A program made the position numbers and the translations under genes. Below, piece by piece: positions 5,131 to 5,890 of a stretch of DNA of 64,000 nucleotides. Source of the DNA: Eledone cirrhosa (Eukaryota); contig OZ024754.1 of the NCBI GenBank assembly GCA_964016885.1, positions 7,192,001 to 7,256,000 on the forward strand. The letters are read 5' to 3'. Numbering within the stretch: the first letter of the stretch is position 1; each line of letters begins with the position of its first letter. The notes beneath the pieces are model-generated. The model made no database searches and was not told the DNA's origin. It worked only from the letters and a program-made list of their open reading frames with translations.

Positions 5131-5561
5131 TTCCGAAGAGATTGTTTGGGTAAAAACAGGGGCAAGCAGGAGAAAGCACTCAACACTCGTAGTTTGTAGT
5201 TACGATGGAGATACAGTATAATAACATTAATAAAGATGTTGATGTTACATAAATCGTTTATTCATTATAATTATTTTAACGGTTCTCCCATGCAATCAAG
5301 ATGTAATTCATGTATTTGTTGTCGTTATGACAACAGTATCCTCAGATGAAATTCGATTTTGTGATATGCGCCCAACAGGAAAAACACGTCTTGCTCGTGC
5401 CTCCAGCATATATATATATATATATATATATGCAAAAGTTCTATTTAAATTGTTGGGATACAACAAGTAAATATTTTTATAACTGATATAAAGCACTCGA
5501 CAAGTATTTGGAGTAGATATATGATATTAACAAATAGAAACTATATTTATAAAACCATATT

Positions 5562-5626
5562 TATTTCATTATACATATTTCAAAGATACCAAGTTAAATT
5601 ATGGTATGCCTTCATCAGACAAAATA
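5562..5626 (-). ncRNA. Type I hammerhead ribozyme motif
   Basis: UAUUUUGU-CUGAUGA-AGGC AUACCA..UGGUAU CUUU-GAA-AUAUGUAU-A-AUGAAAUA. Confidence 0.75.
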
Positions 5627-5782
5627 CAATATATACCAGTTTTATAAATAAACATTGACGTACCCTTTCAAAATGCGGCCGTTACTTTTGGAAGACATCA
5701 GACCATCCTGATGTCTTCCAAAAGTAACTGTTGCATTTTGAAAGGGTACGTCAATGTTTATTTATAAAACTGATCTATATTA

Positions 5783-5847
5783 TATTTTGTCTGATGAAAG
5801 CATACCATAATTTAACTTGGTATCTTTGAAATATGTATAATGAAATA
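5783..5847 (+). ncRNA. Type I hammerhead ribozyme motif
   Basis: UAUUUUGU-CUGAUGA-AAGC AUACCA..UGGUAU CUUU-GAA-AUAUGUAU-A-AUGAAAUA; 8-bp stem I with two G.U pairs. Confidence 0.78.
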
Positions 5848-5890
5848 AATATGGTTTTATAAATATAGTTTCCATTTGTTAATATCATAT

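Follow-up and report, generated by a model that had tools for sequence, protein, structure and literature searches.

In the available sections of PMC8557442, insertions of Penelope-like elements (PLEs) are described as strongly 5'-truncated and biased toward TA microsatellites, with partially tandem arrangements, a 5'-truncated copy placed in inverse orientation at the 5' end, and a tail of 30–40 bp at one end. Head-to-head palindromic junctions were reported as the most frequent arrangement of PLE insertions and were read as products of self-priming on an antisense template (PMC3846280, accessible part). According to the available parts of both papers, the formation of PLE inverted repeats and tails is an open question (PMC3846280, PMC8557442). 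Penelope families are listed for Octopus vulgaris in the accessible portion of PMC13282606. In the published literature, no paper on the family studied here was found, and it may already be named in supplements or repeat libraries.

The hammerheads of PLE pLTRs are of a dimer-dependent type, with an intact core, a long stem II containing an internal mismatch, a small palindromic stem III and paired changes among copies (PMC4209133, available text). In the anole element Poseidon PAc, two recurrent 3' ends bound an optional tail, the target is AT-rich, the ORF starts at hammerhead stem II and the tail lies in the ORF (PMC11167929, available excerpts). Besides, the non-LTR retrozymes presented in the accessible part of a preprint (bioRxiv 10.64898/2026.07.22.740005) are non-coding type I hammerhead repeats related to PLE pLTRs, arranged as direct tandem arrays with a hammerhead per unit.

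The palindrome described here lies at 5431–5890 of the window, i.e., the whole 64,000-nucleotide stretch of Eledone cirrhosa DNA that was analysed. Judged from its sequence, it is very probably a PLE-type insertion. As in PAc, two recurrent 3' ends bound an optional tail and the target is AT-rich; unlike in PAc, the frames close within the arm (by eye) and no ORF was found. Like the retrozymes, it is non-coding, repeats a type I hammerhead motif and is related to PLE pLTRs, but the palindrome is inverted and solo. Direct tandem hammerhead units were absent from the copies in the window, and the reads showed short partial tandems only, among the joints listed. The structure of the palindrome is an already known product of PLE integration, and is slightly unusual in its 88-nt tail and its usable arm haplotypes.

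Structure and identity of the palindrome

Two arms and a 6-nt spacer form an asymmetric palindrome of 372 bases. Inverted self-alignment placed the long (left) arm at 5519–5701 on the minus strand, as the mirrored part of a 5'-truncated element end, and the short (right) arm, its inverted copy, at 5708–5890 on the plus strand, with 8 mismatches in 183 ungapped positions. The inverted self-match reached 572 bits; 200 shuffled versions of the region gave 40.1 at most. The head-to-head junction corresponds to the spacer (5702–5707), located from the sequence and the RNA fold; the fold of the palindrome had a predicted energy of –266 kcal/mol (z –34), a value that none of the 100 shuffles equalled. 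Past the mirror point, the left arm is 88 nt longer than the right one, and this one-sided 3' extension, or tail (5431–5518, minus strand), is common to another copy in the window, at 42895–43131. The right arm ends at the second recurrent 3' end of the family. A small hairpin near the end of the tail was not significant (z –1.3 and –0.8).

From the sequence, a (TA)n tract, likely the target site, flanks the unit on the left (5408–5430) and an imperfect one on the right (5891–5932). Because the arms run into (TA)n, their outer limits are uncertain by about 3 nt. For the same reason, i.e., (TA)n on both sides, a target-site duplication is unreadable, while the TA bias itself is present. The original prediction of a palindrome of about 370 bp, with near-perfect inverted arms around a 6-nt spacer, one arm longer by about 90 bp and the unit sitting inside (TA)n, thus held in all these respects. 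A tRNA-like dispersed repeat, likely a SINE, adjoins the palindrome at 5935–6078 and was also seen at 21541–21684, 12115–12258 and elsewhere; the sole Rfam match in the window at the gathering score fell on one of its copies (21548–21605).

The PLE traits present are a hammerhead with a palindromic stem III near the 3' end, 5' truncation, a head-to-head inverted 5'-truncated copy, an optional one-end tail with two recurrent 3' ends, partial tandems and a TA bias. This is in line with EN+ PLE insertions, which share the truncation, the inverted copy, the one-end tail and the partial tandems, together with a hammerhead in the repeat and a (TA)n target without a readable target duplication (PMC3846280, PMC8557442, available parts). 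It had been claimed that an inverted, truncated copy is a known product of PLE integration, and the accessible sections of both papers agree with it (PMC8557442, PMC3846280). Two differences were noted: no ORF is left here, the insertion being a pure two-arm stump, unlike the published insertions in the available text of these papers (PMC3846280, PMC8557442), and the tail measures 88 nt instead of the 30–40 nt given for PLE tails in the available part of PMC8557442. The insertion is without coding capacity.

Neither a reverse transcriptase (RT) nor a GIY-YIG domain was matched by Pfam in 150 of the 171 non-repetitive frames of the window, where the scan returned only C2H2 fingers and two weak DUF matches. 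Hence, the likely membership in the PLEs rests on architecture; an absent RT/GIY-YIG ORF is expected in a truncated stump. Searches for a longer copy or for the exact pattern gave 0 matches in metagenome contigs and 0 in prokaryote contigs. The element could represent either the terminus of an autonomous element or a non-autonomous derivative, and the TA bias together with the hammerhead suggests the Neptune clade rather than Naiad. The C2H2 zinc-finger matches, at 37236–37550 (minus), 28504–28713 (plus) and 63558–63728 (plus), are presumably LINE 3' remnants. Another frame, 27052–27399 (minus), has no Pfam match and resembles, by its motif, the restriction-like endonuclease end of a non-LTR retrotransposon.

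Two further copies were found in the window. The third copy, at 42895–43131 (plus), is 5'-truncated and flanked by microsatellite on both sides, carries the tail and a hammerhead core at 42944, and matches the long arm including the extension at 90.6%, starting about 35 nt short of the centre. No inverted partner was found there, as the original prediction had stated for 42894–43131. At 25245–25311 (minus) lies a diverged fragment (77%), from this family or a sister family, with its hammerhead broken off after stem III. Partial tandems of the element were absent from the window and present in reads only.

Hammerhead motifs and the read-through hairpin

Each arm carries a type I hammerhead motif: on the left arm at 5562–5626 (minus), with its core at 5618–5612 and predicted cleavage after 5570, and on the right arm at 5783–5847 (plus), with its core at 5791–5797 and predicted cleavage after 5839. 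This confirmed the claim of one hammerhead per arm, each directed away from the centre. The motif is made up of a stem I of 8 bp, a stem II of 9 bp interrupted by a C-C mismatch and a stem III formed by 8 self-complementary nt. A type I descriptor, composed after the motif had been seen, matched six times in the window, compared with a mean of 0.04 (maximum 1) in 100 block shuffles; a looser descriptor returned the identical six matches, against 0.15 in shuffles. Rfam called neither arm's hammerhead, whether at the gathering score or at E<=10, and the matches at the palindrome at the latter level were generic hairpin models. The closing pair of stem II is A-U, the usual one being G10.1-C11.1.

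Among five copies in the window, a small and related set in which copy 37075 aligns poorly in stem II, the hammerhead pairing was kept in 96 of 100 cells and four pairs were changed on both sides. This level was reached by 1 of 500 shuffles, and slid controls gave 35–55%. The intact core, the long stem II with its internal mismatch, the small palindromic stem III and the paired changes among copies are all like the PLE pLTR hammerheads in the available text of PMC4209133. Differences from that text are the A10.1-U11.1 pair, where a G-C is conserved there, no evident extra nucleotide between 9 and 10.1, and a stem I of 8 bp or more (PMC4209133).

The fold computation gave the hammerhead a very low probability as a monomer (P about 1e-8 to 1e-9), in agreement with the dimer-dependent type with a palindromic stem III described for PLEs (PMC4209133, accessible part). 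A transcript of the palindrome has just one of the two motifs in sense, as they are encoded on opposite strands. An in-cis dimer of the two arm hammerheads was rejected on this ground and, unlike for the dimers in the available text of PMC4209133, none is possible within one transcript of the palindrome.

The hairpin predicted for the palindrome contains perfect runs of 73 and 40 bp. In a computed read-through RNA of either strand, the hammerhead stem pairs had P<1e-18, a result that supports, at the level of modelling, the claim that a hairpin of about 180 bp masks the ribozyme. Each hammerhead would be dimer-dependent and, in any read-through RNA, locked in the 183-bp hairpin, which would most likely leave it inert at the palindrome. 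Such a hairpin, if transcribed, would be a substrate for editing or dicing.

Further type I hammerhead motifs with an 8-nt palindromic stem III occur at +37075, +40405 and +63930, each with a microsatellite within about 120 nt upstream. Those at 40405 and 63930 belong to one family, of which a further partial match lies at 58002–58061. Hammerhead-like cores that did not pass the descriptor were seen by eye at +19691, +36622, –60863, –16014, –4081, –24994 and –35954, most of them near microsatellites.

Family copies in public reads

Reads of 4 of the 17 public runs listed were aligned to 5140–5707, i.e., the left flank, the long arm and the spacer. None of the 17 was an RNA run, a result that carries no information on expression. 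They come from an organism that may differ from the species of the window, and represent copies of the family rather than the palindrome locus, only 164 of 33,784 reads of run X15 being at least 99% alike. X15 and X16 are RAD runs. The family is very abundant. The end of the short arm, seen as a loose end before 5529, was joined to (TA)n in 4,712 of 33,784 X15 reads and 5,424 of 36,538 X16 reads, and the tail was deeply covered (depth >10,000 over 5463–5519 in X15). Hence, the family has two 3' ends, about 88 nt apart.

Between 5558–5576 and 5691–5707, the depth fell from 24,928 to 158 in X15 and from 28,393 to 131 in X16, a fall of more than 150-fold toward the centre; RAD depth does not measure copy number, and a portion of the fall (7,326 to 1,823) coincides with a diverged subfamily whose alignment stops at 5633. 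The same trend toward the centre was seen in the X1 contigs. Over 5583–5633, loose ends of the reads showed subfamilies with another stem II and a diverged upstream part. The left flank at 5140–5390 is a low-copy repeat in the sequenced organism, with joints of its own.

Among the 15 of 38 joints listed, 11 lay within the element: two were partial-tandem joints, and nine were opposite-strand joints, known without orientation, four of which end at 5635 and may be alignment edges. The partial-tandem joints (5551 to 5529 and 5576 to 5529) were supported by 6–15 reads each in both RAD runs. The best-supported opposite-strand joints were 5467/5657 (78 and 97 reads) and 5550/5561 (86 and 78 reads, one start), and within this listed set the strand switches sat at varied places. 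Taken with the one-sided tail, the recurrent short end, the depth gradient toward the 5' side, the tandems and the varied joints show that the PLE reading fits every structural test that was run.

The two recurrent ends, the fall in depth, the partial tandems and the varied strand switches make both a fixed-palindrome MITE and an artefact unlikely. Under the first of these, the unit would be a foldback DNA transposon or MITE that has long terminal inverted repeats (TIRs) and a TA target duplication concealed by (TA)n; this would account for the long inverted arms and the TA flanks, and a duplication within (TA)n would be unreadable. Yet one end reaches 88 nt further than the other, the third copy has a single arm and no fixed symmetric TIR was found. 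Read depth is not level but drops steeply toward the centre, the joints vary, and the arm contains a hammerhead motif that shows paired changes. We regard this reading as largely refuted and very unlikely. Such stumps can nevertheless be misfiled as MITEs.

The second, a fold-back chimera arising in the library or the assembly, appears extremely unlikely. No read or contig crosses the centre of the palindrome (5701/5708) among the 15 of 38 joints listed, and structures of this type trouble short-read assemblies (PMC8557442, available sections). However, the arms of a chimera would be identical, whereas they differ here at 8 of 183 sites, and the short arm ends at a real end of the family.

Formation of the mirror arm and other features of the window

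The hammerhead-bearing 3' end of a PLE was, in our preferred reading, inserted once into (TA)n, and the mirror arm probably arose through fold-back of the cDNA at integration; we hold this to be reasonably probable. The endonuclease of the element would nick (TA)n, and reverse transcription would start at the long 3' end (5431) and stop after about 277 nt. The end of the cDNA would then fold back over a 6-nt loop and be copied, and this copy would be linked, at the second 3' end of the family, to the opposite side of the TA target, leaving the 88-nt tail on one side only. This cDNA fold-back is our own inference and differs from the antisense self-priming proposed in PMC3846280.

The arm haplotypes bear on this scheme. 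In a three-way comparison of the arms with the copy at 42895–43131 over 149 columns, the two arms agreed against the third copy eight times, the right arm agreed with the third copy against the left four times, the left arm never did so against the right, and all three differed once. Both arms carry a rare state at 5584 (0.2% of X1 depth, 2.6–3.3% of RAD reads) and another at 5522 (1.0% of X1 depth, 5–6% of RAD reads); at both sites, the third copy shows the common state. As the arms share these two rare states, fold-back of one cDNA is favoured over two independent templates. Some room is left for two templates, since the differences between the arms are lopsided (4 to 0) and the left-arm state at 5627 recurs in the diverged fragment at 25245–25311 (at 25284). 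On inspection, the changes were not A-to-G on one strand, and an origin of the arm differences in ADAR editing of the template was therefore rejected.

Two templates are provided for by twin priming, a possible but less likely route in which both nicked target strands prime cDNA, from the long and the short start sites, on one RNA or on sister RNAs, followed by head-to-head joining. The lopsided arm differences agree with it, as does the short end, which is joined straight to (TA)n in thousands of reads and reused in tandem joints. For the anole PLE protein, a predicted dimer, nicking and extension of both strands have been described, with synthesis beginning at two neighbouring sites that delimit the tail (PMC11167929, available excerpts). 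Against twin priming, independent cDNAs need not stop 6 nt apart, and both arms show the same states, seldom seen in the family. Otherwise, the two routes lead to alike final structures, so the data separate them weakly. The short spacer and the shared rare states favour cDNA fold-back, which we rate as about twice as probable as twin priming.

Further palindromes in the window inform this comparison. A second asymmetric one lies between (TA)n tracts at 40549–40778, with arms of 71 bp (40594–40664 and 40708–40778), a 43-nt spacer and a one-sided extension of 45 nt; it has no hammerhead core and its sequence is unrelated to 5431–5890. The asymmetric (TA)n layout thus recurs in the window. An older, degraded palindrome with a 25-nt spacer was observed at 36257–36376, adjoining a microsatellite. 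The spacers are short in all three palindromes (6, 43 and 25 nt), a further point against twin priming.

It is also very improbable that a later replication template switch, unrelated to integration, duplicated a solo copy in inverse orientation. Rare states shared by the arms would be expected from such a local duplication, but the duplicate ends on (TA)n at the recurrent short end of the family, which a random duplication would not pick, and the second family in the window shows the same layout.

The value of the locus is as test material: its family is abundant, has two sharp 3' ends and contains diagnostic variants, so that arms can be compared across many palindromes. A broader reading, which we consider doubtful, is that an abundant, PLE-mobilised family with an unusually long 88-nt tail leaves stump palindromes that record the building of inverted ends in vivo, and that each of these insertions seeds a long perfect hairpin for RNA editing or small-RNA pathways. 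If true, cDNA fold-back, antisense self-priming and dimer twin priming would be told apart by the arm haplotypes of the copies.

Other repeats were also observed in the window. A dispersed repeat occurs as an inverted pair at 58242–58968 (177 bp, 89%, about 375 nt apart). A 2-kb trinucleotide-based tandem array occupies 45350–47400, and several kilobases of TA-rich satellite lie at 49100–57700.
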